DNA of 64,000 nucleotides from Amphiscolops sp. MND2022 (taxonomy: Eukaryota): NCBI GenBank assembly GCA_964187785.1, contig OZ076412.1, positions 38,750,001-38,814,000 of the forward strand, given 5' to 3'. Below are positions 12,902-28,370 of the stretch, piece after piece. How positions within the stretch are numbered: position 1 is the stretch's first letter; every line of letters begins with the position of its first letter. The notes under the pieces are model-generated. The model saw only the letters and a list, made by a program, of their open reading frames with translations, made no database searches and was not told where the DNA came from. The position numbers were made by a program, and so were the translations under genes.

Positions 12902-12948
12902 AGTAGTATACGTTGGTAGGGGTATTCGCACACTTTCGTTTCTCCCTA
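12902..12948 (+). repeat. Left terminal inverted repeat (47 bp)
   Basis: agtagtatacgttggtaggggtattcgcacactttcgtttctcccta is the exact reverse complement of 28324-28370. Confidence 0.97.
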
Positions 12949-13520
12949 CAGTTTAACATGGAGTTTTTGCAATTTTCTGCAAAAGGTAACCATATAAGGT
13001 AACAATTCTCAGCTAGGGCCACCTCTAAGTTGTGCGGGAGCGGGTAGAATCATTTAGATTAACAATTTGAACTGTATTCGCAATCTGATGATGTCTTTTT
13101 ACACTCTTAAAACTTATAACTGAACAGGCAGTGTAGCTCTAGTGCTTAAACCCGCTGCAGCGGGCTCGATGGTACCGTGATCGAGCCGCACCCTAAGCAC
13201 TAATCCTGCACTACCATTTTGATGGAAATCAACAATAAAATTGACCCTGAAAATTAAACACGCAGAGGTTAAAATACCAGATTTATTTTGACACTTCGCC
13301 ACGCTAATCAATAAATTTTTCCAGTCAAATCAGTTGTGCGTACCAAAAATATCGTGAGAAAGTTGCAATCAAGCCGGTGATTAATCTTTTCCAATTCAGA
13401 CGCTAATATGACTTTTTGATTTTTTCCCACCAAAAAGATGACATATCACAAATCGATTGAAAATAAAAACCGAGTCCGGAAGTTGAATTTCATTTCAACT
13501 GAAAACCTTGTCAGTACATC

Positions 13521-14414
13521 ATGACTTCCACTACAAAAGAATTTTCCACTGAACGTATGAGATACCTTCTATACGAGACAAACGAAGTCTTCACACAAAA
13601 AACCTGGGACTCTTCTGATCAAGACGACAGTGTGACAGAACCCATACCCAAAAAAGAATACAATCCATTGAGAGACACAACCCATTTGGTCGAAAGTCTC
13701 AAAAAATTCCTCGAATGGGTTATAGATTACTCCAACTTGGAATTTTGCGTGGCTCTGCATGCGAAGGAAGACGACGCAAACGAAATGGATATTTGCCAGA
13801 ACTATGGAAGACTGCACTATCACGTGATACTCTATAGTGTGAAATTTCCCAAAACCATGGATAAAATTATCAAAAAGAACTTTACCACTGCCCTCGAGGA
13901 AACCATGAACTCGCAGAACAACTACAGAATTGAAATGTTCAGCACAAATAGTTCATCTTTTCGGAGAGAATTTTTGAGAAACACAAAAACTTTGGTGACA
14001 CATGGGCCATCTATTCAACAGCACTTGAAGGGATTGAATCATACAAGCAGCCGCAATCACGTTGACTGTATCTGGGACAAATGTCAAAAAACTGGGCGGT
14101 ATGAAGCAAGCCGCGACACAATCATCGATCGAACCAAAATTCTAGACAACGTTGAAGAGTTGGAGAAATCCGCCAGTCAGTTCAAACATGTGATACCCGA
14201 TATCGTCAACTTCCTCACCCAAAACAGCTATGGATCCTTCACCAACTCCCAACACAGTTCGGTTTTAAAAGTATCACTCGACCTGACCGACGCTCAATGT
14301 TGCTGCCACGACTGCTGCTTTCCCGAAAAACAAACCCCGGAGAGCAGAAACTATCAATTCATTGACGAAGGAACTGTCCTGTTTGAACAATCATTTGATG
14401 GTATATTCAGCTAG
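13521..14414 (+). CDS. Polinton ORF, 297 aa, with HUH-like motif (GRLHYHVIL); function unknown
   Basis: ATG-initiated ORF and first gene after the left TIR. H-hydrophobic-H motif in a beta-strand-like context. No obvious catalytic YxxxK. Confidence 0.7.
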   Translation: MTSTTKEFSTERMRYLLYETNEVFTQKTWDSSDQDDSVTEPIPKKEYNPLRDTTHLVESLKKFLEWVIDYSNLEFCVALHAKEDDANEMDICQNYGRLHYHVILYSVKFPKTMDKIIKKNFTTALEETMNSQNNYRIEMFSTNSSSFRREFLRNTKTLVTHGPSIQQHLKGLNHTSSRNHVDCIWDKCQKTGRYEASRDTIIDRTKILDNVEELEKSASQFKHVIPDIVNFLTQNSYGSFTNSQHSSVLKVSLDLTDAQCCCHDCCFPEKQTPESRNYQFIDEGTVLFEQSFDGIFS

Positions 14415-14444
14415 ATTTCAGTTGCTAAAAATTTGCTTTCAATC

Positions 14445-14867
14445 ATGTTGTTTCCTGAGTATCTTGATATACAACAAGTAATAAAAAACTTTGATGAACT
14501 AGTAATTATTTTCCCACAAAATAAGGTCAGCAAAAATGCTTTTCTCCCAGTGTGTCAGGTTATTGACCCAACACGGGACCTGGCAGCAATAAATGTAGAA
14601 TGTGAGTACGGAGGCTTGATAGGGCCAGGCAACAGTTTCCTACATCCTTTGCTTCAGAAATTTAAACTTTTCCGTGTTCACGCGGCCTTTCATGATGCAT
14701 TTGGTTTCATGAAAGAAAAGTATAATTTGGGACCAGGATATGTTTACACATTGGGTGAGGAACCATCATTCAAAAACAGCTGCCTGTTGGGTCATTTCAC
14801 CGGCTTGTTTCTTTGGATGTATCTAAAACTGACACAATCACAGATTTATTCCGAGTTGCCATTTTGA
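14445..14867 (+). CDS. Parvovirus-type phospholipase A2 domain protein (PLA2X-like)
   Basis: Ca-loop-like LIGPGNS and catalytic HAAFHDAFG, resembling parvoviral YLGPGN and AxxHDxxY. ATG at 14445. Confidence 0.75.
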   Translation: MLFPEYLDIQQVIKNFDELVIIFPQNKVSKNAFLPVCQVIDPTRDLAAINVECEYGGLIGPGNSFLHPLLQKFKLFRVHAAFHDAFGFMKEKYNLGPGYVYTLGEEPSFKNSCLLGHFTGLFLWMYLKLTQSQIYSELPF

Positions 14868-14883
14868 CTAGTAAGCATTCCAA

Positions 14884-15171
14884 ATGTCAGCTGCTAGCTC
14901 CAAGCTACCAAACACATCACTGCAGCTTTCATTGAATTCGAAAGTTTTCATACAATATAATCATCAGAATCATTTTTGCATTTACCTCCAAAAGATTGAT
15001 TCTGGTGTCTGTCCGCTAAACAATTACAGGTTGAGACACCTAGTTCCACTCACTTTGGAAGAACTTCTCCAACTATCGGAAGCATCGAAAATTCGTTGTT
15101 CAACCCTAGAATACAACTATAATCTTTCTAAAAAGCGAGAATACCCAGATGCCAAACCATCTCGCAAATGA
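14884..15171 (+). CDS. Small Polinton protein, 95 aa (possible PC4-like beta-sheet/helix pattern)
   Basis: ATG ORF tightly packed between PLA2 and the next gene; KVFIQY..FCIYLQKID..VPLTLEELLQL. The fold is a guess. Confidence 0.55.
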   Translation: MSAASSKLPNTSLQLSLNSKVFIQYNHQNHFCIYLQKIDSGVCPLNNYRLRHLVPLTLEELLQLSEASKIRCSTLEYNYNLSKKREYPDAKPSRK

Positions 15172-15460
15172 AAAAGCTAAGGATCAACCAGACACACCAA
15201 TATCTGTTACTGGAGGCAGTCTGATTTTTGACAACGACGAAAACGAGAGACCTCCGTGGAAACTTCAATGCTGTTGTATTAGAAAAGAATGTGAGCGATC
15301 GCTCCTAGTCTTATTACTGCATTATTTTATCGTCTTTTTGGTTGTGGCAGCAAGTATAGGGTTCTTATTCCTCAAGCAGAGCGAAAACAAGGGCAGCATA
15401 GGAGTGGTTGCCATCATATCAGCGTGCTTAGGCTATATAATTCCGTCACCGAGACAATGA
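15149..15460 (+). CDS. Small two-TM membrane protein preceding the packaging ATPase
   Basis: Two hydrophobic segments (LLVLLLHYFIVFLVVAASIGFLFL; IGVVAIISACLGYII) ending GYIIPSP. Its TGA overlaps the ATPase ATG (ATGA at 15457-15460). Confidence 0.7.
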   Translation: MPNHLANEKAKDQPDTPISVTGGSLIFDNDENERPPWKLQCCCIRKECERSLLVLLLHYFIVFLVVAASIGFLFLKQSENKGSIGVVAIISACLGYIIPSPRQ

Positions 15461-16151
15461 ACAAAATAATCAGCACAGATCCCCACTGTTTTCTCATGGT
15501 AGTTGGACCCAGTGGCTCGGGAAAAACTTACTTAGTCTCGCAGCTTCTGAAACAGCATCACCAAATTTTCAAACCGAACTTCCAACAATTTCTGTACTTT
15601 TATAATCATTTTCAACCATTTATCAAGAACTGCAAGTATTACTGGGACCAAAAACTTTTCATCTTTGTCAAGGTGTTGACTGGTCTCTACTGGACAAGGC
15701 ATCGGCGTCAAACCAACACACTCTCGTCATTTTCGACGATGTCTATCAAGAAGTAGCTGCCGCGAAAGAGTTTTTGAACCTCGTGATTTCCGGCCGACAT
15801 CAGAAACTACATCTGCTGGTCCTGAAGCACAATTTGTACCAGCAGTCAACAAACTCCAAAACGATTGATCTGAATGTTACACAATTGTTGTTGCTGAGGA
15901 ACCCACGAGACACAAATCAAATTGACTACTTGGGACGACAACTTGGTTGCCGAGAACTTTTACTCAATTCGTATAAAAGAGCAACGCAAGATGAGTTTGG
16001 TCATTTGCTCATCGATCTGGATCACCGGCTGAATGAAAACTTGCGTTTTTCTTCAAACATAGTTTCTAAACCAGCCATTTATTACTGTAACACTTCAAAC
16101 TCGACAGCAATAAACATTGATGATTCCTTCACAACATCTTTATACAATTGA
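15457..16151 (+). pseudogene. FtsK/A32-like DNA packaging ATPase with a 1-nt frameshift at about 15619
   Basis: Walker A GPSGSGKT lies in the first frame. From 15621 the shifted frame reads YQELQVLL...TLVIFDDVY (Walker B)...ISGRHQKLHLLVLKHNLY and continues into ORF 15774-16151. Confidence 0.9.
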
Positions 16152-16479
16152 GTTGTTCTCATCGTTCAAACCAATACTAAAAAGACATTTCATCTTACAT
16201 TGTAGTGACGATAAAATAAAACTTTTCTGCAATTGCCTTTTCAACATCAAGGAAGGAGCGATAGAGCTCAAAAATGTGAAACCTAATACTCTCAAGAAAA
16301 ATAAACTGCTCATTCAACAGCTCTGTTCACCTAAGATCAGGTTGGCTGTGAAAAGAGAACTACTGGCGTCCAAGCAAGGACAAAGTCTTTTACGCTTGCT
16401 AAAAACTTCAATATTAAGATATCTGAAACTACAGTGCTATGAGCAAGCCAACAAAGCGGTTTGTACTTGTGTCAGCTGA
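16120..16479 (+). CDS. Basic Polinton protein of the type usually found after the ATPase
   Basis: ATG at 16120. FCNCLFNIKEGAIEL...LIQQLCS...KRELLASKQG resembles the recurring Polinton post-ATPase ORF (recognised by eye). Confidence 0.7.
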   Translation: MIPSQHLYTIELFSSFKPILKRHFILHCSDDKIKLFCNCLFNIKEGAIELKNVKPNTLKKNKLLIQQLCSPKIRLAVKRELLASKQGQSLLRLLKTSILRYLKLQCYEQANKAVCTCVS

Positions 16480-17095
16480 TGTGTACTTCAACCAAGGAGA
16501 GGAGAAGGCCATTAACGGCGGCTTAATTGCTCAACCATCAGTAGCAACATCTGAATCGAAAAGGGCCAAGTTTTCCGAACAAGACCTGAAACAAGAACTT
16601 ATCAAGGAAGAAACACTTTGCGAATCACCTTTGGAGGTGACCACAAAAGCGAGTCAACTCGATGTTCTAGATCGACTTGCGCCGTCGAATCGTAAAGAAG
16701 CAATCGATCAGAATAAATTGTGGAACATAAATAACAAAATACAAACAATCATTAGTAAATTGATCGAGCTCGGCTTTAGCAGCAGCAAGTTGGAAAGATC
16801 ACGAATTATATTACAATCATTTTTCAAAAATTCGCGACTGTCTCTTAACTAATTGCTGGAAATACAACTGGACGGCAGTCCAACACAGGTAAACCTCCTA
16901 GCATTTCTGAGTGACCTTCAAGTTGCCAACAAAAAACTGGGTGAAGCATCACTGAATGTGCTGCGTATACTTAAAATCACAACTAAACACATCATAGCAA
17001 ATGTCAAGGCAAAAGAGGTGGTGTCGTCAGCGGGACAAAACGATTCGACATCGAGTTCACTTTCTTCTTCGACCTTGTGGGTCGAGCGCTTCTGA
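16439..17095 (+). pseudogene. Polinton uncharacterised gene with an internal nonsense codon (TAA 16850-16852)
   Basis: ORFs 16439-16852 and 16853-17095 share one frame and are separated only by a single TAA. The second has no ATG at its start. Starts MSKPTKRFVLVS. Confidence 0.7.
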
Positions 17096-18281
17096 TGACG
17101 GGCAATTAGCAGCAGAACTCATCAATCAACTCTTGATTCGAGCAGGAATTGAATTAAATCCCGGACCTCTCAAATGTAATTGCTGTAAAAAACTTTTGGG
17201 CAAAAGTACGAAAAAGGCACCAACTGTTTGGTGTCACGTTTGCGGATGGGTACACTTCAAGTGCAGTGGCTTAAACACACCATTGGATTATCAAAAGACT
17301 ACCAATTTTCGGTGCCCGTGGTGTGCCACCAACACAAGATTCGCAAACGAAAGTTCAGACCCGGCACTTTTAACATTGCACAAACTCTACACTTCAACAA
17401 GCAGTCACGCCGCTTTCGGCTCGAGCGAGGTTTTGAGGAAGGCAGCAGCAACAAAAGGAATCAAGAGAAAACAAGTTGACAAATTCCTTTCACAGAGCGA
17501 AACGTACACCAAGTTCCGCGCTGGTATACACAAGTTCACCCGGCTTAAAGTGCAATCTTACCGAATCAATGAAATTTGGTCTGGTGACTTGGCAGATGTG
17601 CATCAATTAGCAAAAAACAACGACGGCAAGAAATTCCTCTTGGTTTTTGTGGATTGTTTGAGCCGATTCCTCCGCGTGGATGCAATTGAAACCAAGTCAG
17701 CGACGCAAACAAGGACTGCACTACAGCGTTTGATACGGAAGCAAAAACCAGAAAAGATTTGGGTGGACAAAGGAAAAGAATTTAAGGGCGAATTTGCCAA
17801 GCTTTGTGCAGAGAAAAACATTACAGTATATAGCACCCACAGTGAGATGAAATCATGTTTGGCCGAGCGCTACATTCGAACTCTCAAGTCAATTTTATTT
17901 AAATATTTGCATGAGAACAACACCAGTCGATACATTGATCAACTCCAAAACTTTGTTAACCTCATCAATTCTCGACCTAACAGGACCACAAAGATTGCTC
18001 CGAAAAAAGTGACAAAGAAAGATGTACCGTACCTCGTGTCGTTATCAGCCAATGCCAACCCTGTGAAAAAACCACGGTATAAGATTGGTGATACAGTAAG
18101 GATTCGATTGAAAATCCCCACTTTCCACAAGGGCTATAAAATTCAGTTTACAGAAGAAATATTTGAAATTGTAGCCAATCCGACACTGAACCCCCCGACG
18201 TACACAATAAAAGACAAGGACGGCCAAGTCATCGAAGGAAAATTCTACGAGGCAGAATTAGTTTTATTTCGTTACAGTTGA
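17001..18281 (+). CDS. Retroviral-like DDE integrase with N-terminal 2A-like peptide and PHD-like finger
   Basis: WSGDLAD, FVDCLSRF, WVDKGKEF and LAERYIRTLK form the DDE core. C-terminal YKIGDTVRI...FHKGY..QFTEEIF..KFYEAEL is typical of Polinton integrases. Confidence 0.95.
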   Translation: MSRQKRWCRQRDKTIRHRVHFLLRPCGSSASDDGQLAAELINQLLIRAGIELNPGPLKCNCCKKLLGKSTKKAPTVWCHVCGWVHFKCSGLNTPLDYQKTTNFRCPWCATNTRFANESSDPALLTLHKLYTSTSSHAAFGSSEVLRKAAATKGIKRKQVDKFLSQSETYTKFRAGIHKFTRLKVQSYRINEIWSGDLADVHQLAKNNDGKKFLLVFVDCLSRFLRVDAIETKSATQTRTALQRLIRKQKPEKIWVDKGKEFKGEFAKLCAEKNITVYSTHSEMKSCLAERYIRTLKSILFKYLHENNTSRYIDQLQNFVNLINSRPNRTTKIAPKKVTKKDVPYLVSLSANANPVKKPRYKIGDTVRIRLKIPTFHKGYKIQFTEEIFEIVANPTLNPPTYTIKDKDGQVIEGKFYEAELVLFRYS

Positions 18282-18310
18282 GTAGGTAGCTAGATGACCT
18301 TGTACCTGCA

Positions 18311-19156
18311 ATGGAACAAACTTTTACAATCAATTTAATTTCCAATGCTTCCATGCAAGTGTTTCCTGCAAACACTATGGCTCAATTCACAACATTATTA
18401 CCCCATAGAATTGAACTAGCTGGAGACTGGGAGGTTGCCATTCTAGAGGCATCTTGGCCGGCCAAAGTTAAAAACATTACAAGCGCCGCATTTACGTTGA
18501 GTTGCTTCGACAAAAAGTCAAAGAGACCAACAAGACCGAAACATAATGGAACGATACCAGACGGCTATTATCCAAACGTCGACATTCTGATGACTAAACT
18601 GATACAATCAGTGTATCAAAGAAACGACACAAACTTCCCAGTTAGTTGGAAAGTTGATCCAGTCAGCGGGAAAATTGAAGTTTTTTTCCACAGTCAAGAG
18701 TTGGAAGATCAATTTTGGCTCCTGTTCAAGTCAAGCGATCTTTCAAACACACTCGGAATCACCGACACGATTTGTTGCACAATTCAAAGCCAACTTGAAA
18801 AAGGTTACGCCGTGCAAGGCACTTACCCGGTCGATCTACAGGGTGGTCGGCACACAATGTTTTTATACTGCGATTTGATTCAAAACGAAATCTTGGGTGA
18901 CGCTCAAACAGCTCTTTTGAGGGCCATACCGTTGAACCAAAGAGATGCTGTTTCCAATGCAACATGCTACAGAAACTTTCACAAATTGCAGTGGAAAAAA
19001 CTGACAAGGTCAAATTTTCAATCAATAACGATAAGACTCTGCGATGAAAGCGGCCAGCTGATGCCTTTCGTCAGTATTGGACGGACCAATCTCACGCTAG
19101 CTTTCCGTCGCCGCAGCGGCCACTCGTCTTCATTCAACTCAAATCAACAATTCTGA
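18311..19156 (+). CDS. Penton / minor capsid protein
   Basis: FTINLISNAS..FPANT..FTTLLP..IELAGDWEVAILE at the N-terminus; FLYCDLIQ..LGD..TALLRAIP and ITIRLCDESG at the C-terminus. Confidence 0.9.
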   Translation: MEQTFTINLISNASMQVFPANTMAQFTTLLPHRIELAGDWEVAILEASWPAKVKNITSAAFTLSCFDKKSKRPTRPKHNGTIPDGYYPNVDILMTKLIQSVYQRNDTNFPVSWKVDPVSGKIEVFFHSQELEDQFWLLFKSSDLSNTLGITDTICCTIQSQLEKGYAVQGTYPVDLQGGRHTMFLYCDLIQNEILGDAQTALLRAIPLNQRDAVSNATCYRNFHKLQWKKLTRSNFQSITIRLCDESGQLMPFVSIGRTNLTLAFRRRSGHSSSFNSNQQF

Positions 19157-19189
19157 ACAGTTGCTAACTAAAAGACCAAAACACAATCT

Positions 19190-19643
19190 ATGGATGCTTA
19201 CTATGCTTCGCAGAGGACATTCCACGGACCAGCAAGGCAATTCGGTTCCGGGGCAGGTCTGGGAGCCTTTGCAGTTCGCGTGGGACGGACTGCCATGCCG
19301 CTTTTGAAAAAATACGTCGCCCCAATAGTCAAACAAGTAGGCCAAAATGTGCTGGAAGCCGCTCTACCCGAAGTGGCCAGTCTCATTTCAGGCAAAAAGA
19401 AGACGAAGAGAGCGATCAAGGATGTCGCCAAACGGGTGATAGCAAAAACTATTGAGCCGAGTGCCGCGGCGGGCGGCACGGCGGGCGGCGGTCGGGCGGG
19501 CGGCGGCGCAGCCAGAAAACGAAAGCATGCTGAGTTGTTGAAAGCTCCTTCAACAAAAACAATCATTTCGAACAAAGACTCCCAAGAGAAGTCGGGCAGA
19601 CATTTTGACCAAAGTGAGATTTGCCAATTCTTCCAACAGTTGA
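19190..19643 (+). CDS. Core/DNA-condensing precursor protein (adenovirus pVII/pX-like), in-frame with hexon in this copy
   Basis: YYASQ..F.G..RQFGSG.GLG....PLLKKY..P motif followed by a K/R/G-rich tail. An alternative-frame end KRSRADIL...* stops at 19641-19643. Confidence 0.75.
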
Positions 19644-19648
19644 AGGGA

Positions 19649-20995
19649 ATGAGTGCCAGCACACCCAATTCAATACAATTTCATAGCCGAGCAAGCGATG
19701 TAGCTCAACCAGTAACACACAGTGCACTAGACTTTTTTGAAAAACCTTCAGTCTTGATCAATTACGAAGGGTCCCACGACCAAGAAGTTTTTCCACAAGT
19801 GGGGTGTCGAGGACCACAATTGGATTTTGTAGTTACCTCCGACAATAGAAACCTGGTTGATTTGAACAAAATAGTCTTGGACATCGACTGTGCCATCTAT
19901 AAAGCCGATGGGAAAACGCCTGCCGAAGAAGTTCTTCCTGTATGTTTTGCAAACAACACGCTACATAGTTTGTTCTCTCACGCCGAGGTTTTTATTGACG
20001 GCATATTGGTTTCATCGAGCAACAATGCATACCACCACGCAGCATTCATCGAGACGGAAATGACGACCGACCTTGATGCGAAAGCAACTTGGGCTCGATG
20101 TCAAGGCTACGAGTACCAGGCAGACAAAACATCAGAGGAAGAGTTAGCCAAGTGGAAAAATGAAAAATACGAGCAGGCAAAAATCCCGAAAAACAAATTA
20201 CGACTGGTTGGAGCGCCCCATATTGACTTTTTCGAATGTGAAAAAATTCTTTTGCCAGGAATTACACTTCACATACGCTTCCACAGATCAAGCAACGACT
20301 TTGTACTAACATCTCTAGACAGCAGCAGTGATGATGAAAAGTTTGTTGCAATTATTGAAAGGGCATCACTGTTCGTCACCAAAATGGTCGTGAAGGACTC
20401 TGTGCGAATGTCCATAGAAAAGGCGTTGGTAAGTGGTCCTGCCCATTATCCCTACATTGAGACATTAAATAAAAGTTTCATCATTCAAGCAGGACAAAAC
20501 AGCTTTGTGAAAGAAAATATTTTTGGAACGGAACCAGTCAGACGTCTCACTTTGTGCATGACAACAAACGAACAATTCCGAGGAACTAGGAACGCAGATG
20601 CCTTCCATTATAAACCGTTTGGCTTGCAGAGACTAGAAATTACTCGTGGAAATGGGGTCCCAGTCCCAGGTAGTCCGCTGGACATGAGGAATGGAAAAAT
20701 GCGAGCCTATTACAACACAATATGTTCACTTGGCTTTGCTGCGGGTAAAGGAGGAAACGGAATCGCTTACAAAAATTTTGACGATCATTTCGTTTTGGTA
20801 TTCGATCTGACCTCTAGCAGAGAAGCTTCCAAAAGTCTCACCTTATTTCCTGAACTAACAGGAGGTAGTCTCACGTTGAAGTTAACTTTTGAGCAACAAT
20901 TGGAACAAACAATTGAGCTCTTCCTCATTGCGGAAAAATTTAGTCAAATTTTCATTACATCCGAAAGAACAGTTCTCAAAAATACGGTATTGTAG
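19649..20995 (+). CDS. Hexon / double-jelly-roll major capsid protein
   Basis: Internal ATG at 19649. SALDFFEKP, NNTLHSLFSHAEVFIDG, HIDFFECEKILLPGI, FHYKPFGL, VFDLT and GSLTLKLTF match the Polinton MCP pattern. Confidence 0.92.
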   Translation: MSASTPNSIQFHSRASDVAQPVTHSALDFFEKPSVLINYEGSHDQEVFPQVGCRGPQLDFVVTSDNRNLVDLNKIVLDIDCAIYKADGKTPAEEVLPVCFANNTLHSLFSHAEVFIDGILVSSSNNAYHHAAFIETEMTTDLDAKATWARCQGYEYQADKTSEEELAKWKNEKYEQAKIPKNKLRLVGAPHIDFFECEKILLPGITLHIRFHRSSNDFVLTSLDSSSDDEKFVAIIERASLFVTKMVVKDSVRMSIEKALVSGPAHYPYIETLNKSFIIQAGQNSFVKENIFGTEPVRRLTLCMTTNEQFRGTRNADAFHYKPFGLQRLEITRGNGVPVPGSPLDMRNGKMRAYYNTICSLGFAAGKGGNGIAYKNFDDHFVLVFDLTSSREASKSLTLFPELTGGSLTLKLTFEQQLEQTIELFLIAEKFSQIFITSERTVLKNTVL

Positions 20996-21013
20996 CTGTA
21001 TCAAGTCACACTA

Positions 21014-21505
21014 ATGGACACTTGGGCTCTACAAAAACTGGCACTCAAATGTAGTCATTTGATAGAAACATTTCGGGGAGTTTGGAGTGCAGACAACTTT
21101 CCTCTGATGGAAGAGGACGATGCATCACCGTCATTTCAAATTGTCAACACTGAAGCTAGCAACAAACCCGGAAAACACTGGATTCTACTATGCAAAAGAA
21201 CTAAATCAGGTATAGGTGCTATCATATTTTGGGATAGCTTGGGAAAAAGGCCGAGAAAATACAAGGTATTGTTCGAACGATTGAATGAAATTTATAAAAA
21301 AATTGTTGTATTCAACCATCCTCTTCAGAGCAACTATTCAAATTGCTGTGGTTTGTATTGTATACTTGTTGCACATTATTTACCATTATCGGAAAATAAC
21401 AAAGCAGCTGCACAAATGCTCCCAAAGAAGATGGTTGATGAGTGTTCATTAATTCGTTTTATAAATTACCATTATAATACTGCTTTCACATTTGTAGTCA
21501 TTTGA
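21014..21505 (+). CDS. Adenain-like (C5) cysteine maturation protease
   Basis: FRGVWSAD, IVNT...GKHW (His), FWDSLG (Asp), LQS..SNCCGLYC (Gln/Cys). Confidence 0.93.
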   Translation: MDTWALQKLALKCSHLIETFRGVWSADNFPLMEEDDASPSFQIVNTEASNKPGKHWILLCKRTKSGIGAIIFWDSLGKRPRKYKVLFERLNEIYKKIVVFNHPLQSNYSNCCGLYCILVAHYLPLSENNKAAAQMLPKKMVDECSLIRFINYHYNTAFTFVVI

Positions 21506-21519
21506 TTAATTGATCATTA

Positions 21520-21851
21520 TTAACCACAATCACTTTCTTCGGCTTCACTAAGTATGAAGGGACACTTTCGTTTTGGTTCTCTGTCATCATCATCATCTCC
21601 ACAGTAGTCAGACAGTTCATCGAAATTGACAATGTTTGAAGAATGCTCATCAGCATCGTCATCATAGGGTCGAGACGAGAAACCAGGATCAATAGGACCT
21701 GATAAGGAAAGAAAAAGTACTCGGTGCTTTAGTTTACAGAAATTCGAATACTTAGGGTGATATACATACTGAAGATGGAGGAGGCCAACGAGAGCACAGA
21801 GGCGTCGTCACTTTGAGGAAAAACAGACGACGAAGCCCCATCATCATCATT

Positions 21852-21911
<60 letters not shown>

Positions 21912-21976
21912 TAACTCAGTGTCATCTTCGGCGGATGAGGATGAGACTGAGTAGGAGCGGGTTGAGTCAGAGAAGT
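21520..21976 (-). CDS. Two spliced acidic exons (21976-21770, 21698-21520) encoding a poly-Asp tail
   Basis: Acceptor ttctttttttcag at 21977; 71-nt intron GTATGT...tttccttatcag at 21769-21699. The frame is kept across the junction through (GAT)20-AAT-(GAT)3 to TAA at 21522-21520. Confidence 0.7.
21840..21911. repeat. (ATC)n trinucleotide repeat, read as D20-N-D3 on the minus strand
   Basis: Counted directly. Confidence 0.95.
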
Positions 21977-22014
21977 CTGAAAAAAAGAACGAATAAAATT
22001 AACCATTCACACCT

Positions 22015-25000
22015 TTATGCATAAGATTGAAAATAGGTGAAAGTATTACTTGACTGCTTAAGTGAATGATGTCCGTAGGCCAAAGATTTAACACCACAAT
22101 CCAAGAGAAATCGTTTATCATCAAAGGCGCTTAGGGCAGTTTTGTTCACTTGAGCCACGACTAGTTGATGTTGCTGCGATCGAATTTGGGTGTTGACCCT
22201 GCAAATGTTCACTTTCGATTCTATAATGCTGGTGAACAGATCGTGATTCAACGTTTTTTTCACGCATTTTTTAACTCCTTTGGCACTCTGCTTTACGCCA
22301 CTGTCAAATTTTATACTGTAGAGTTTAGATCTCAAGCAAGTACATTCCAGTAGAATTTGACCATTCAATTCGTCCTTCATGGTTAGCGGCTTCTTCTTGT
22401 TAGTTGCGTCGTACAATTTATGATTCTGAGGGTAGTCAGACAAATCCAAGAGATTTTTGAAAGATTCCATGTCTGAGTATAGATCATCTGTTTCGATTCG
22501 ATATAAAAGAGAATCAGTATCCTTGTAGACGACAGTTACTTTTTCTCCATAACGTGGCTTCATTTCGTTATAGTGGAAATTATACAGCACAATTTTCGAT
22601 AAGTCCAAAATGGCGGCTCCAACAGGCGTTGGTTTATTCCATAAAATTGAGGTTTTCGAAAAATTCAGTGACACTAGATTGCTGTGGATTATTTGAAAAG
22701 TCAAAAAATTAGGCTTCAGGGTGTAACGTTTGGCCTCGGTAGTATTCGCAACAAACTTAGTATCCCTTCTATGACGTAGATTCTCCATCGTTTTGCCGAA
22801 ACAGGCATTAGAAAGGAGCTTGAAAAAATTCTTCTCGAAATCTGTTGTCGCATTTTTTCGCATTTGGGTGTTTTTGGATATGTAGTTTCCAAGCCAGCAG
22901 CTTTGATCGAACTGCAGAACACGATGGAGTTTCTTGACCTTGAGACCTTGCTCCAAATAAAATTTAAGGTTTCTAAAGTGGCATATATAAAACTGTTTAT
23001 CAAATAGCGTTTCAATAAGCTTGGCCACTGGTGAAACTGGAAGATTGAAGGAATTGGCGTAATCCGACAGCCATTCCTTCTTGATTGCGAGTTTTTCCGG
23101 AGCAAGAGGTAGGTCGTTGTGAGATGCATGCAAATGTGCTGGATATTCCAGGTCCACCTCAGCGAAAAAACCAACGGGCCCGAAAGAGTCAGTTTGTAGG
23201 ATATCCTCTAAAGTCAAATCTTCTCTCCATTTGTAGTTGCCGACAGGAAGAGGTTGCTGCATTGTTCCAGCATATAATGAAGTGACATCAAAAAATGCTC
23301 CAAACACTGAAGGCTGGGAGGGATCAAAATCTTGCATGTATTGATTGTTAGCTTTGAAGTGTCGCAGGGCGCCGGTTCCATTGATACCGCCGCGAATAGC
23401 CCGCTCACAAAACAGTAACATATCAATATCCGTCAAAACTCCAAGCTCAACTTTGGTGGTGATCAGCATCGCTTCCCAGCTCAAGTTGGGAGCTGAAAAA
23501 AAATGAGCAGGATCTAGTTGATACTCTTTCACACCCACGTCACGGAAAGCCTGAAAGATGTCTGCGAGAAGATACACATCAAGGGTTAAATATAGGTCAT
23601 GATAATCGCCAAAGTCTTTGCACTGCATCAAATTGAACATATCCTTTGCTGTTTGGTACTGATCCTCGGTTATATCAATTTTACCAGTAAGACTATTTCT
23701 CCAAGCATCACCGTATGCTGGAAAAGGATCCGAAAACCTTTCGAAGCTGTTCAAGAAACTGTAGGGAAAATACCCTTTACCGCGAACTTTTCGAAAGTCA
23801 GCATCGTTCAGATGCGAAAATTTCCTCCTTAAAAGTATGAGCGATGAAGACTCCATTGTTCTGGCCAAGCTGTCGAGAGATTGGGACATGAATTGAAAAC
23901 TGTCTAAGAAGCGAATTTCACTGTAAAGCGCAACAACTTTACCGTCCTTGCGTTTGTATTCAGAGACTTTGATGCGAAGGCTAAAAGAGATATAAATTTC
24001 GTCAGTACGCGAGATGGCTGAAAATTTTTCACCAGGGAGAACATTGATATTTTTCAAAATGTGGTGGGAATCATACCTGGAGAGATTGTGAAAGAACACA
24101 GGCAAGAAACGCTTGATCTGAGCCTTCAAATTACACATGGAATGAGCAATCCCAAAAATCATGCCCGATGAGTGGCAGTGATGAATCACCGGGTCATCTT
24201 GTATGACGCTTTTGCAAATACAACACTTTTCACCTCTAGTTGAGGCCAGGAATTGCTCTTGTTGAGTTTTAGTGAGCACATCACTTAGAAATCTGTACCT
24301 TTGTCTCTCAGAGTCACACCAGGCATTCCACTTGCGAAGGCAGTTCATCAACTTTTCGATGCAATCTTCTCCGCGGTAAAAAGATTCATCGACAACTTTG
24401 TTGCTTTGAGAATCAACCAAAACAGCTCCATAGCTCGCAGGTAGCTGTTTCTCAATCAGAACAGTTTTGCTGCCGCTCTGAATAAACATCGGAACATTGA
24501 GAGCTTCTAAATCTGCATAAACGACAAAAGGACACTTCTGAGTTTTTTCCCAGTTTGAGAAAGTCAGTTTCAGATGCTCACTGGGCATCACAATCCTCAA
24601 AGGTTGATTGTCATCACAAAGTCGAGCATGTTCCATGAATTTTTGCTTCCCAATAGACTGCATGCAGTTCACGCAAAACTTCGTTTTGGGACCCTTGGCA
24701 GCTCGTTTTGGAGATCTGCATACTTTATGCATGAAAGCTTGAAAATTAGTTATCAGACAATAGTGCGAATTGAAGCCATCCAAAAGTAAAAGCAAAAAAA
24801 TCTTTGGATATTCCCCTCTGTTTCTACTTCGATGACAACAGATGAGTCCTCCCTGCTCATCGAAATTAAACACTGTTATGGAGAGATTATTGTCGCTTTC
24901 AAATCTTGCGATATCCTTAAGTTTCATAGGCATCATTGACTCGCTGAATTTGAGACGATTAAATTTGTCACGGTATTGAGAAGGCCTGTCGCGATTTTTG

Positions 25001-25836
25001 GACCGAGGATAAAGGTACGCGAGAATACAATATATGAAGCAGAAATTGTCAAACAAGTTTTTGATATTAAGCAGACATTTACGCATGCCCTCAAGTTTTG
25101 CTGGGGTTGGCAGAAAAGAAGTTCCAGCAAGTGATCTTGTATGACAAATTTTGATATCTAAAGATGAAAGCTGTTTAAGAATCCAACCTGAACCACCGGA
25201 GCAGAAGACGTTGAGTTGTCTCAAAACTTGGTCAATCAACTCATCAAGGTCTGCGTTGTCGATCGACTCAACAGCTCGCACCAAACGTGATGAGAAGTGG
25301 GGAGATATAGTTTCTTCGGTACATGGTTTTGATAATACAACTTGCAAACACAGACCAACGCGGGATATTCCTTGGTTGGTTATTTCCTGGTCAATCAAAA
25401 GTCCGATATTGGCTCGATTACTCCATATAAAGGCCAATGGATCAACACTTTCAGTTTGAACATCTAGTCGCAAAATTTTGAAGTGAGAATTCAAGGCTAA
25501 CACTGTTTTAGAAACCTGCGGAATCGAGGCCCAATTGACTTCTGTTGTAGTTGTCATTGTGGACGAAGATACAACAGGGTGCTCCCTGCTCTTGTGCGCG
25601 TGGAGATAGGACTCGTTTCCAAAAATTTTTGGGCAAGCATTACATTGAATGCTTTTATTGAATTTGTGAATATTCCTCAGATGGCGGATCAAATTCTTCG
25701 AAGAAGTACATGTTACTTCACAATGTCCACAACTGAAAGACCATAGTGAGGGCTCTTTTTTGTGAACAGCTCTGATATGTTTGAAAAGAAGTCGTTTGGT
25801 TTGGAAGTTGTCTCGGCAGTCTGGGCAAGGAAACAT
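22015..25836 (-). CDS. polB: Protein-primed family B DNA polymerase (pPolB), 1273 aa, with N-terminal C2H2 zinc fingers
   Basis: Exonuclease motifs YADLEA, FHNLSRYDSH and DVYLLADIF. Polymerase motifs FDVTSLY, KLLSNACFGK and YKDTDS. The ORF is intact. Confidence 0.97.
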   Translation of the reverse strand: MFPCPDCRDNFQTKRLLFKHIRAVHKKEPSLWSFSCGHCEVTCTSSKNLIRHLRNIHKFNKSIQCNACPKIFGNESYLHAHKSREHPVVSSSTMTTTTEVNWASIPQVSKTVLALNSHFKILRLDVQTESVDPLAFIWSNRANIGLLIDQEITNQGISRVGLCLQVVLSKPCTEETISPHFSSRLVRAVESIDNADLDELIDQVLRQLNVFCSGGSGWILKQLSSLDIKICHTRSLAGTSFLPTPAKLEGMRKCLLNIKNLFDNFCFIYCILAYLYPRSKNRDRPSQYRDKFNRLKFSESMMPMKLKDIARFESDNNLSITVFNFDEQGGLICCHRSRNRGEYPKIFLLLLLDGFNSHYCLITNFQAFMHKVCRSPKRAAKGPKTKFCVNCMQSIGKQKFMEHARLCDDNQPLRIVMPSEHLKLTFSNWEKTQKCPFVVYADLEALNVPMFIQSGSKTVLIEKQLPASYGAVLVDSQSNKVVDESFYRGEDCIEKLMNCLRKWNAWCDSERQRYRFLSDVLTKTQQEQFLASTRGEKCCICKSVIQDDPVIHHCHSSGMIFGIAHSMCNLKAQIKRFLPVFFHNLSRYDSHHILKNINVLPGEKFSAISRTDEIYISFSLRIKVSEYKRKDGKVVALYSEIRFLDSFQFMSQSLDSLARTMESSSLILLRRKFSHLNDADFRKVRGKGYFPYSFLNSFERFSDPFPAYGDAWRNSLTGKIDITEDQYQTAKDMFNLMQCKDFGDYHDLYLTLDVYLLADIFQAFRDVGVKEYQLDPAHFFSAPNLSWEAMLITTKVELGVLTDIDMLLFCERAIRGGINGTGALRHFKANNQYMQDFDPSQPSVFGAFFDVTSLYAGTMQQPLPVGNYKWREDLTLEDILQTDSFGPVGFFAEVDLEYPAHLHASHNDLPLAPEKLAIKKEWLSDYANSFNLPVSPVAKLIETLFDKQFYICHFRNLKFYLEQGLKVKKLHRVLQFDQSCWLGNYISKNTQMRKNATTDFEKNFFKLLSNACFGKTMENLRHRRDTKFVANTTEAKRYTLKPNFLTFQIIHSNLVSLNFSKTSILWNKPTPVGAAILDLSKIVLYNFHYNEMKPRYGEKVTVVYKDTDSLLYRIETDDLYSDMESFKNLLDLSDYPQNHKLYDATNKKKPLTMKDELNGQILLECTCLRSKLYSIKFDSGVKQSAKGVKKCVKKTLNHDLFTSIIESKVNICRVNTQIRSQQHQLVVAQVNKTALSAFDDKRFLLDCGVKSLAYGHHSLKQSSNTFTYFQSYA

Positions 25837-26453
25837 TCTGGCAGTGGGTCAATCAAAAACTGAACGTTATATGATGGGTGAAAATTTGAAAAAATATTCT
25901 ATAAACCAAAAAAGAACAAAAGAAGTACTTTTCGAAACATGCTAGATCAAATTTAATTTTCACCCATCATTAGAGTAGATGTTAGAGAAGTAGGTTATTC
26001 AAATGCATGTCTATCATTCAGTAGCTAAACTTTAAAGGATTCTCCGTTGTGTTAATTATATACCAAGAAGAATACTTAGGTTCACCAAAGTTGAACGAAA
26101 GTCGAGTTATCAAGGTTCATCGACAAATATAGACAACTGAGAAGAAAATTTGAAGTCCAACATTATCGAAATCAACTTCAATTGACATTGCATAATTAAT
26201 TACTTCTAGGCAGACTCGTAAATGACCAGATTCTCAGTTATGTTTATTCGATAGAGAAAAGATCGTTTAGGTTCATTATTAAAGTTGAGCTGAAATCAGC
26301 TTATCAGGGTTCATTAGCTTATTTGGACAATGTGTGAAACAGTTTTGACATTATCAAAATGAACTCGGAAAAACTTCGGGCCCTTTGAATAACAAAGGTG
26401 TCAAAAAATTTGAAAAGTGACAAAAGATGAGATAAAAGTCGGCTGGAAAGGAG

Positions 26454-26460
26454 TATAAAA
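26454..26460 (+). promoter_or_regulatory. Candidate TATA box for the right-end gene
   Basis: TATAAAA about 100 nt upstream of caaccATG at 26560. Confidence 0.4.
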
Positions 26461-26559
26461 GTGCACACTTGGAATATATCTTGATTGAAGTTCCTGTTGA
26501 AAAACGCTCAATATTGGTTTTTAAAACTCTGCATCGTTGAAATTTCCAAATCATCAACC

Positions 26560-27558
26560 ATGAACAACTCATTCTTTTCAATATTGATTCATGAATCAAG
26601 AGAGGTCACGGTTCGCGAAACACGAAAACCCGGACAAGAGAGCAGCATCGAAATAAAGGTCCTCAAGAAGCGAGTTGACGAATTTGGCGAAGCTGGCGGG
26701 GTGATCGGCACCGAGGCTTCCTTCCCTGAGAAGGCCTTCACCAAACTGATGAGAATCAACTGGACAATAATTTTCTTCGGGATGCTGGTCAACGGTGAAT
26801 TGCCTCAGGAGATGCTGGTGCCGACCCCCGCCGACGAGGACGCAGGGCTCCGTATGGAATCGCGTTTCACGTCAACAATTTTCTCTGAAGTCGGTAAGCA
26901 TGAACATATTAAATAGGATTACTGTTGGTCAAAGAGAGAGGGACTCAGGCAAATTAGTCTTGAATCGAGCTTGAAAGATCACTAACATATTCAGTGCAAC
27001 CCTTTTCTTTGGGCGCTTGTGCCTTACAAGACGATGAAATTATCAAGATGACTTAGGTTGTATTGAAGTGCTTTGTTTCAATTCGATAACACTGTTCTCA
27101 TTTCATGTTTAGGAGAGAAGACAGCATTCAGGGCGTCAGTGAACATATACAACTCTAACATACATACAAAGAAGAGTGTGTATGTTACAATGAAGGCCTT
27201 CCGTTGGGAGCCCGAATGGTCACAATTCAATCGAGTTGGGCAAGTACTTACGCTGCATCATTGTGAGATGATGCGGCTGATTACGGAATATAACGCCTAT
27301 CTGGATAGAATTGTCTCTCCTTCTGGTAAGCCAACGGGAGAGAGCACTTGCGAGGAGGAAGACCGACCCTTGTCACTACTGAAAGCTGGGACGTCAAAGC
27401 GCACTAAAAAGACAGGATCTTCCTCCTCGCAAGTGCAAAAGAAAATACCAAAAAAGACGGCCCTTGCGGAAGGGACTTCAACGACGCCCGCAGTTGATGC
27501 CCCAAAGGAGACCACTAGCGAAGAAATCACTATCGAAGATAGTGAGGATGAAAACTAA
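26560..27558 (+). CDS. Predicted two-exon gene join(26560..26893,27113..27558), 259 aa, with two PC4-like repeats and a basic/acidic tail
   Basis: Donor G|GTAAGC at 26894 and acceptor tttcatgtttag| at 27112 are both phase 1. The joined length of 780 nt is in frame. The fold is a guess. Confidence 0.6.
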
Positions 27559-28323
27559 TTGTATAGATACAATTGATTTGTATTATTTTATTCAGTACCT
27601 AATTGTATATTGTTATATTACCTCAAAGTTTTGCTGCTAGTTAGCAAATGACGCATCAAGTTTGAAAAATACATCAAGTATTTCGAGTAAAAACAGTGAA
27701 AAAAGAAAGTCATCATGAGAGCGGGTTTTCAAAGTGACTGCGATCAGATTCGATCCGCGTTCAAAATACTTTTCATATTTTCAAATTGATCTAAAGATGA
27801 AAATTGAAGTAAGGAAATGTCCGAAAGTACAAATTCATTTTAATTCCAAAATTGATTTGAGCAAAACCCCTTGCTCCAATGCTTACTAAACGCGCCGTGC
27901 CGGCGCGCTGTTCCTTGCGGCCCAGTATTACGACTTACATGAATTCCATCGTGGTCTACACCACTAGGCTACAGGCGCACTGATTTAGAATGAAATTGGA
28001 AGACTGTAATTAGCAGCGAGAAGGATTGATAAAAGCGATGAAAGCAGTATTGGGAATGAGAAACATCAAATAGAATTAAATTGAGAATACAGCTATTCGG
28101 TGTGGTGGCCGTTCAAACTTCGATGACATTGAATAACTCTAGGGTTGAATTGAAACAGCATTGCAATTCAATCTTTCCAAAACACATAGCATTGAATAAA
28201 ATCAAACATTGGAAAGAATGATTAGCAGTAACACTTACATCGATAGTTCGAGTTTGTATCAATCGAATAAGTTCAAGGTTAAACAGAAATTTGCGAAAAA
28301 TGCAGAATTTTGTGGAAAAACAA

Positions 28324-28370
28324 TAGGGAGAAACGAAAGTGTGCGAATACCCCTACCAACGTATACTACT
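28324..28370 (-). repeat. Right terminal inverted repeat (47 bp)
   Basis: tagggagaaacgaaagtgtgcgaatacccctaccaacgtatactact, followed by the TSD gtcagg. Confidence 0.97.

Follow-up and report, generated by a model that had tools for sequence, protein, structure and literature searches.

We propose that, in a Polinton/Maverick element of Amphiscolops sp. MND2022, the gene for the protein-primed DNA polymerase of family B (polB, encoding pPolB) comprises three exons, with the acidic tail encoded by the two downstream exons most likely being its normal C-terminus. The explanation that best covers the data as a whole, to which we assign a probability of about 85%, is that the polB RNA would lose two short phase-1 introns to the host spliceosome, yielding as the usual product a 1390-aa pPolB that ends in a predicted disordered acidic tail of ~128 aa, a putative docking tail that is probably older than the introns. 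Splicing of both introns is likely, as judged by comparison of genomic copies and related proteins and not of RNA. The window, i.e. the entire 64,000-nt stretch of DNA that was analyzed, contains the following features.

12902-28370, no strand assigned: full-length Polinton/Maverick with AGTAGT termini, terminal inverted repeats and the 6-bp target duplication GTCAGG
21014-21505, plus strand: adenovirus-like protease gene, convergent to polB (Peptidase_C5, E 0.0015, below the curated cut-off)
22050-25836, minus strand: pPolB exon 1, 3787 nt (1262 codons + 1), ending in phase 1 shortly after the LAYGH motif
21977-22049, minus strand: predicted intron 1, 73 nt, phase 1, GTAATA...TTTCAG, ends TTTTTTTCAG
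21770-21976, minus strand: predicted exon 2, 207 nt, an open Ser/Asp-rich linker with a variable GAT repeat (21911-21852)
21699-21769, minus strand: predicted intron 2, 71 nt, phase 1, GTATGT...TATCAG, splitting the motif aromatic-x-x-P-D-P-G-F
21520-21698, minus strand: predicted exon 3, 179 nt, with three motifs

The element and its polB gene

The arms of the terminal inverted repeats lie at 12902-12977 and 28295-28370, with GTCAGG flanking both sides, a length within the 5-8 bp range of Polinton target duplications. The element encodes a retroviral-type integrase (PF00665, rve, E 4e-11, at 17001-18281), a maturation protease with the Peptidase_C5 match listed above and a packaging ATPase at 15457-16150 on the plus strand, the latter with Pox_A32 and P-loop matches at 15457-16148 in two frames that are below the curated cut-offs. 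That its polymerase belongs to the protein-primed family B is indicated by what we take to be its Exo and Pol motifs, which were identified in the window protein; PF03175 in Pfam had no match to this protein but is listed for a close relative, P0012. Two ORFs for putative major and minor capsid proteins (19190-20995 and 18311-19156) are conserved in the expected order in subfamily B, with no capsid match in Pfam. Among the descriptive traits of Polintons, intronless core genes would not apply here, given two predicted polB introns across eight subfamilies.

Other genes of the element displayed features of their own. The packaging ATPase of the window copy is split over two frames, while in another copy, L083, its two counterparts share one frame number. 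At its start, the putative major capsid frame (19190-20995, plus strand) has ~70-150 aa of basic, Gly/Ala-rich sequence. The parts of L083 that match this frame are in different frames; a fusion of a small core-protein gene with the capsid gene in the window, or a split between the two in L083, may account for this. In addition, a second spliced gene is likely in the same Polinton (26560-26893 and 27113-27558, plus strand), with a phase-1 intron of 219 nt (G/GTAAGC...TTTAG) whose GT and AG are kept in 30 of 30 close copies; neither of its exons matches Pfam.

Without splicing, the polB frame spans 25836-22015 on the minus strand and encodes 1273 aa, with the in-frame stop that ends it (22017-22015) sitting inside predicted intron 1. 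Exon 1 harbors N-terminal C2H2 fingers, an HNH (endonuclease VII-like) insertion, and the exonuclease and polymerase motifs. The tail exons occupy the gap between the protease gene and the polB frame, with the stop of exon 3 positioned 14 nt from the convergent protease stop; no canonical polyA hexamer was found on the minus strand within 20900-22050. Within the tail, a run of 20 aspartic acid residues (21911-21852) is followed by the three exon 3 motifs, DPGF (21690-21679), V-D/N-F/W-D (21630-21610) and CPFI-x-x-EA-x-E (21564-21532), with PKRK at 21576-21565, and the last full codon of exon 2 encodes the conserved aromatic residue of the junction motif. Recomputation reproduced the gene model of the initial annotation in full: a phase-1 donor A/GTAATA at 22049, introns of 73 and 71 nt, exons of 207 and 179 nt, and a predicted spliced product of 1390 aa.

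The N-terminal C2H2 zinc fingers are at 25836-25570 and the endonuclease VII-like HNH insertion at about 24270-24125, both on the minus strand. Such an insertion (PF02945) is also listed for many relatives; in the accessible text of one report, an HNH insertion is treated as a mark of nematode and oomycete pPolB2 (PMC10748475).

Conservation of the predicted introns

The host genome (1.07 Gb) yielded 45 DNA matches to the region, and copies are 92-99% alike. The initial annotation had named conservation of the splice sites in sibling elements as a check on its model, and this was borne out: of 30 close copies (window included), 30, 29, 30 and 30, respectively, retain the four splice dinucleotides, and both introns recur at the same places and in the same phase in eight subfamilies of the host genome. 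Of another nine copies that are partial or more diverged, L034 and L036 have all four dinucleotides, L031, L035, L037 and L039 have lost at least one, and L032, L033 and L038 are incomplete; the decayed copies with a lost splice dinucleotide are L013, L031, L035, L037, L039 and L041.

For the other subfamilies, matches to the polymerase end were taken from the 150 scored of 3002 candidates, and 20 of about 120 divergent matches were fetched. Eighteen of these loci, with ~60% aa identity in pPolB, are of the intron type; of the other two, L050 has foreign DNA inserted and L058 is a single open frame. An AG precedes the D of DPG[FL] by exactly 8 nt in 17 of the 18 intron-type loci (AA in L041), against an AG frequency of 0.032 inside the introns. 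In each of eight subfamily representatives, the window's included (L001, L040, L046, L047, L051, L053, L055 and L059), we found introns of 63-85 nt with YAG acceptors, a phase-1 donor that follows the YGH motif at 19-31 nt, and an exon 2 that is open and a multiple of three in length. Because the intron lengths across subfamilies take all three remainders modulo 3, read-through or a fixed frameshift is excluded. The introns are AT-rich (GC 0.19-0.40 vs. 0.42-0.48 in the tail exons), with interiors near the identity of shuffled sequence (0.52 vs. 0.50 and 0.52 vs. 0.49, 28 pairs each), and synonymous sites of polB are saturated between subfamilies (pS 0.72-0.97). Between subfamilies exon 3 displayed pN of 0.24-0.48 vs. 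pS of 0.63-0.89; among close pairs omega was mixed and based on few changes (exon 3: 0.24, 0.33 and 1.18; exon 2: 0.31, 2.42 and 0.58). Omega estimates of 0.0 stem from saturation and are left out of account.

The signals are of the U2 type, with all 16 chosen introns reading GT...YAG and carrying A at +4 in 12, G at +5 in 11 and T at +6 in 11. The choice was made by consensus and analogy among 4-36 frame-compatible GT-AG models per subfamily, and the chosen acceptor 1 in L051 and L059 is not the most pyrimidine-rich option. Donors of nine inferred host introns resemble those of the polB introns; these host introns are 315-5756 nt long, and a size of ~70 nt is not among them.

One could argue that an assembly artefact is at play, or that the tail merely reflects open frames that arose by chance around the GAT microsatellite as the element decayed. 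Changes in this repeat are multiples of three whether translated or not, which is why we did not count the frame-keeping of exon 2 among close copies (29/30) as evidence. However, the structure is kept in 30 close copies and in seven further subfamilies, and the other subfamilies retain the motifs without the GAT repeat. This reading, to which we give practically no weight, is refuted by the conserved motifs in one-frame relatives.

One-frame relatives and the exon junctions

A search of other pPolBs for the acidic tail, a further check that had been named at the outset, revealed that 27 database proteins and a sister family in the host genome carry the tail in one frame with pPolB. Six of these are among 120 listed database pPolBs, with D[PM]G[FLM] absent from the final 200 residues of the other 114; 13 came from 63 proteins found with an exon 3 profile, all 13 holding the polB end, the tail and the three motifs; and eight came from additional searches. 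Several of these proteins are on contigs of 100 kb to >1 Mb and are hence genomic, while those on short contigs may be RNA-derived. The sister family (L058) encodes a 1328-aa single-frame pPolB with DPGF and IIYEALE in all four copies fetched. A search for longer proteins with the exon 3 profile (8000 candidates scored, from gene callers that are mostly single-frame) found no spliced product of the eight subfamilies. One member of the tail-bearing group, P0285, is from the acoel Convolutriloba macropyga; it has a long branch, and its gene model ends before the DPG motif.

These relatives allowed a test of the second junction, with the donors having been picked before the one-frame relatives used in the test were seen. 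Among one-frame relatives with all three motifs, 19 of 21 have an aromatic residue at position -4 relative to the D of DPG (background 8%; 0/6 in short-tail relatives). In the intron clade, the predicted splice places F or Y at this position in 10 of 11 copies, whereas retention would place S or L there in 11 of 11, and only one of 12 alternative frame-compatible donors gives an aromatic residue. The place of predicted junction 2 is fixed by this aromatic-x-x-P-D-P-G-F test. Junction 1 is less sure in its exact place, lying in no conserved motif; its basis is the phase, the shape of donor and acceptor, and the fusion in relatives.

The same comparison bears on whether the acidic exons might belong to a separate small gene, or be spliced to an upstream exon other than that of polB. 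Stand-alone frames of 53-170 aa over exon 3 are often called, and 50 of the 63 profile matches are without the polB end; the stand-alone frames examined, however, start in intron-like sequence or are fragments. Moreover, exon 2 of the window has no in-frame start codon, confirming that the acidic exons lack an ATG of their own before the repeat, as had been noted. With donor 1 in matching phase in all eight subfamilies and the tail fused to pPolB in relatives, we consider a separate gene highly improbable. The joining of the acidic exons to pPolB, with the sites and phases given in the initial annotation, agrees with the finding of the same tail fused in one frame in relatives.

Proposed retention of intron 1

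The initial annotation had also suggested that retention vs. splicing would give two polymerase isoforms. In such a scheme of regulated alternative splicing, retention of intron 1 would yield a tail-less 1273-aa polymerase and splicing a tailed one, with both being functional. There are several points in its favor: 1) all catalytic motifs are within the unspliced frame; 2) in most other pPolBs the C-terminus comes a few to ~30 residues past this motif region, as marked by the same motif, so that a short form could work; 3) donor 1 of the window (A/GTAATA) differs from the GTTAGT/GTGAGT type of other subfamilies; 4) an in-frame stop is present in intron 1 in seven of eight subfamilies. However, a stop within GTTAGT donors is a by-product of the phase-1 donor sequence, and the ending specified by the retained intron is not conserved, with other subfamilies stopping within a few codons and L051 and L036, which have no stop in intron 1, reading through. 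The one-frame relatives, in turn, produce only the long form. As a general rule, a stop codon more than 50-55 nt upstream of an exon junction marks an mRNA for nonsense-mediated decay (NMD); with intron 2 removed, the retained stop would be 245 nt before a junction, making this RNA a likely NMD target. The two-isoform proposal thus fared poorly, and we deem it quite unlikely.

History of the tail and the introns

In a tree of 37 rows built on the final 240 residues of the polymerase, 19 tail-bearing and 18 tail-less rows part at 99/93, and a 100/100 group, next to two one-frame lineages, unites the intron subfamilies with P0288 and P0293; the midpoint root serves for drawing only and sets no order among the three tailed lineages. 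P0288 and P0293, placed inside the intron clade, are one-frame proteins. In P0288 the spliced type of junction 2 is found in one frame, while P0293 has an intron-sized stretch there; their one-frame state may reflect intron loss or read-through of a stop-free intron. We infer, as the simplest reading, that the tail was gained once and the two introns later. The tail would accordingly be a feature of a wider pPolB group, single-frame in the sister lineages and older than the introns, and the introns were probably acquired in the stem of the intron clade and then kept.

One copy of the sister family is part of an element of 16.8 kb (L060:2892 to L061:9735, on G000:C9) with AGTAGT ends, the target duplication CAGATC and an unbroken 1328-aa pPolB. 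None of the other proteins of the window element was matched in it, and much of the remainder resembles tandem repeats; it is possibly a polymerase-only, non-autonomous Polinton derivative. That a one-frame element has its own repeats and target duplication without the window's other proteins hints that the tail serves DNA copying and not particle assembly.

Composition and possible function of the tail

The poly-Asp run emphasized in the initial annotation turned out to be a GAT microsatellite, varying from 4 to 25 D among the 30 close copies and absent from the other subfamilies, whose tails comprise 18-24% D+E and 18-27% Ser; the acidic tail itself thus stands, but not poly-Asp as its key feature. 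Likewise, PKRK, put forward as a possible nuclear localization signal, is not conserved in place and appears to be incidental, with each subfamily having some basic cluster. What is kept are short motifs (aromatic-x-x-P-D-P-G-F; V-D-F/W-D-x-L-S; P-F-I-x-x-E-A-x-E), often with a last basic cluster followed by S-D-S-D/E. In an alignment of 11 rows (A1), the invariant columns are the D, P and G of the first motif and the I, E and E of the third. Selection on the tail probably keeps these motifs and not the poly-Asp run.

In an AlphaFold2 model of a sister protein (L060), the polymerase is confidently modeled and matches phi29 polymerase (E 9e-19), while the tail is unmodeled (pLDDT < 50, residues 823-907). 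The model displayed no docking of the tail on the polymerase, with only about 10 of 61 alignment rows holding a tail. Searches of Pfam and PDB with the tail gave no meaningful match, and a predicted complex between exon 3 and host H3-H4, each histone in two copies, scored 0.00 with the alignment not used and speaks neither for nor against binding.

We surmise that the tail may act as a docking platform for the polymerase in the host nucleus during DNA copying. As to its partner, we can only guess: histones or chromatin/replication factors seem the least improbable, an import receptor plus CK2-type regulation somewhat less probable, and the element's own proteins or DNA mimicry, or some other partner, less probable again. 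The third tail motif may resemble stretches of Mrc1/Claspin, FANCM and papillomavirus E1, and DPGF may resemble the D-x-x-F pattern of H2B binding. Pfam, searched with 11 members at E <= 10, gave no match to Spt5_N or MRC1. In yeast, Spt5N contacts H3-H4 via F180, E184 and V187, according to the available part of that report (PMC8886531); the third motif shares the F-x-x-x-E spacing (F180/E184), with F or Y in 10 of 11 A1 rows and E at +4 in 11 of 11, but at +7 all 11 have E and not V, so that the key residues of Spt5N are not all reproduced. A precedent for a polymerase with a histone-binding tail is the N-terminal histone-binding motif of Pol alpha, as described in the accessible text of PMC6166128. 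In these systems, as far as the partial sources go, an acidic disordered tail with conserved aromatic and acidic residues is likewise found on a nucleic-acid-processing machine, but their motifs are N-terminal, whereas the Polinton tail is C-terminal and on a viral-type polymerase, and its binding is hypothetical. Histone or chromatin-factor binding of the tail is, by this analogy, a lead only. A bolder reading would give an animal Polinton lineage its own histone-handling polymerase tail, as the viral equivalent of those found in Pol alpha, Mcm2 and Spt5, and would have one clade gate a chromatin-competent polymerase via two fixed host-spliced introns; we regard this as doubtful.

Relation to known elements

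As far as can be gathered from the accessible texts, the anatomy of known Polintons/Mavericks is found here as well (terminal inverted repeats, 6-bp target duplication, integrase, protease and ATPase), along with the polymerase motifs and an HNH-type insertion, and the sister protein folds like phi29 polymerase. The pPolB of these elements is described as having a TP-vOTU-EXO-PALM organization in the available part of PMC11161782, where a C-terminal acidic tail is without mention; here, such a tail is present with two predicted spliceosomal introns. In the portions of text available, intact vertebrate Mavericks are reported as intronless (PMC8097293), as are the core genes of a nematode Maverick (10.1101/2022.07.12.499685). 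Introns inside polinton-type elements have likewise been described, as introner insertions within dinoflagellate polinton-like elements (PMC12166617, accessible text) and, from sources available in part, as group I introns in some protist polinton-like elements. In contrast to the dinoflagellate introners, which the same text presents as recent intron-generating transposons, the polB introns here appear to be old, with randomized interiors, and are fixed across eight subfamilies in a core gene. Among the openly accessible articles searched, nothing turned up on the tail or on spliceosomal introns fixed within pPolB; Repbase may have an earlier annotation.

Annotation treats each Polinton core gene as a single open frame, and ordinary gene calling would cut the tail off; the database indeed has a truncated form (P0012) and loose exon 3 fragments. 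Adenovirus DNA polymerase, another protein-primed enzyme, depends on host splicing of its mRNA, which supplies its first residues; in the Polinton, splicing would instead give the C-terminal tail. Long-kept spliceosomal introns in a core replication gene would mean that transcription and splicing in the host nucleus are part of the normal cycle of the element. The polB introns would also be a clear-cut example of introns gained in one clade while its sister lineages are intronless, and the conserved motifs provide a testable host-interaction module in a polymerase family whose biology in the cell is nearly unstudied.

Additional observations in the host genome

The host chaperonin is encoded by an intronless gene with a 98% identical copy containing stops (L115 and L117), beside intron-rich paralogues. 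In many host contigs (G000:C67, C82, C33 and others), histone genes are arranged in tandem units of ~3.63 kb comprising H2B, H3, H2A and H4.
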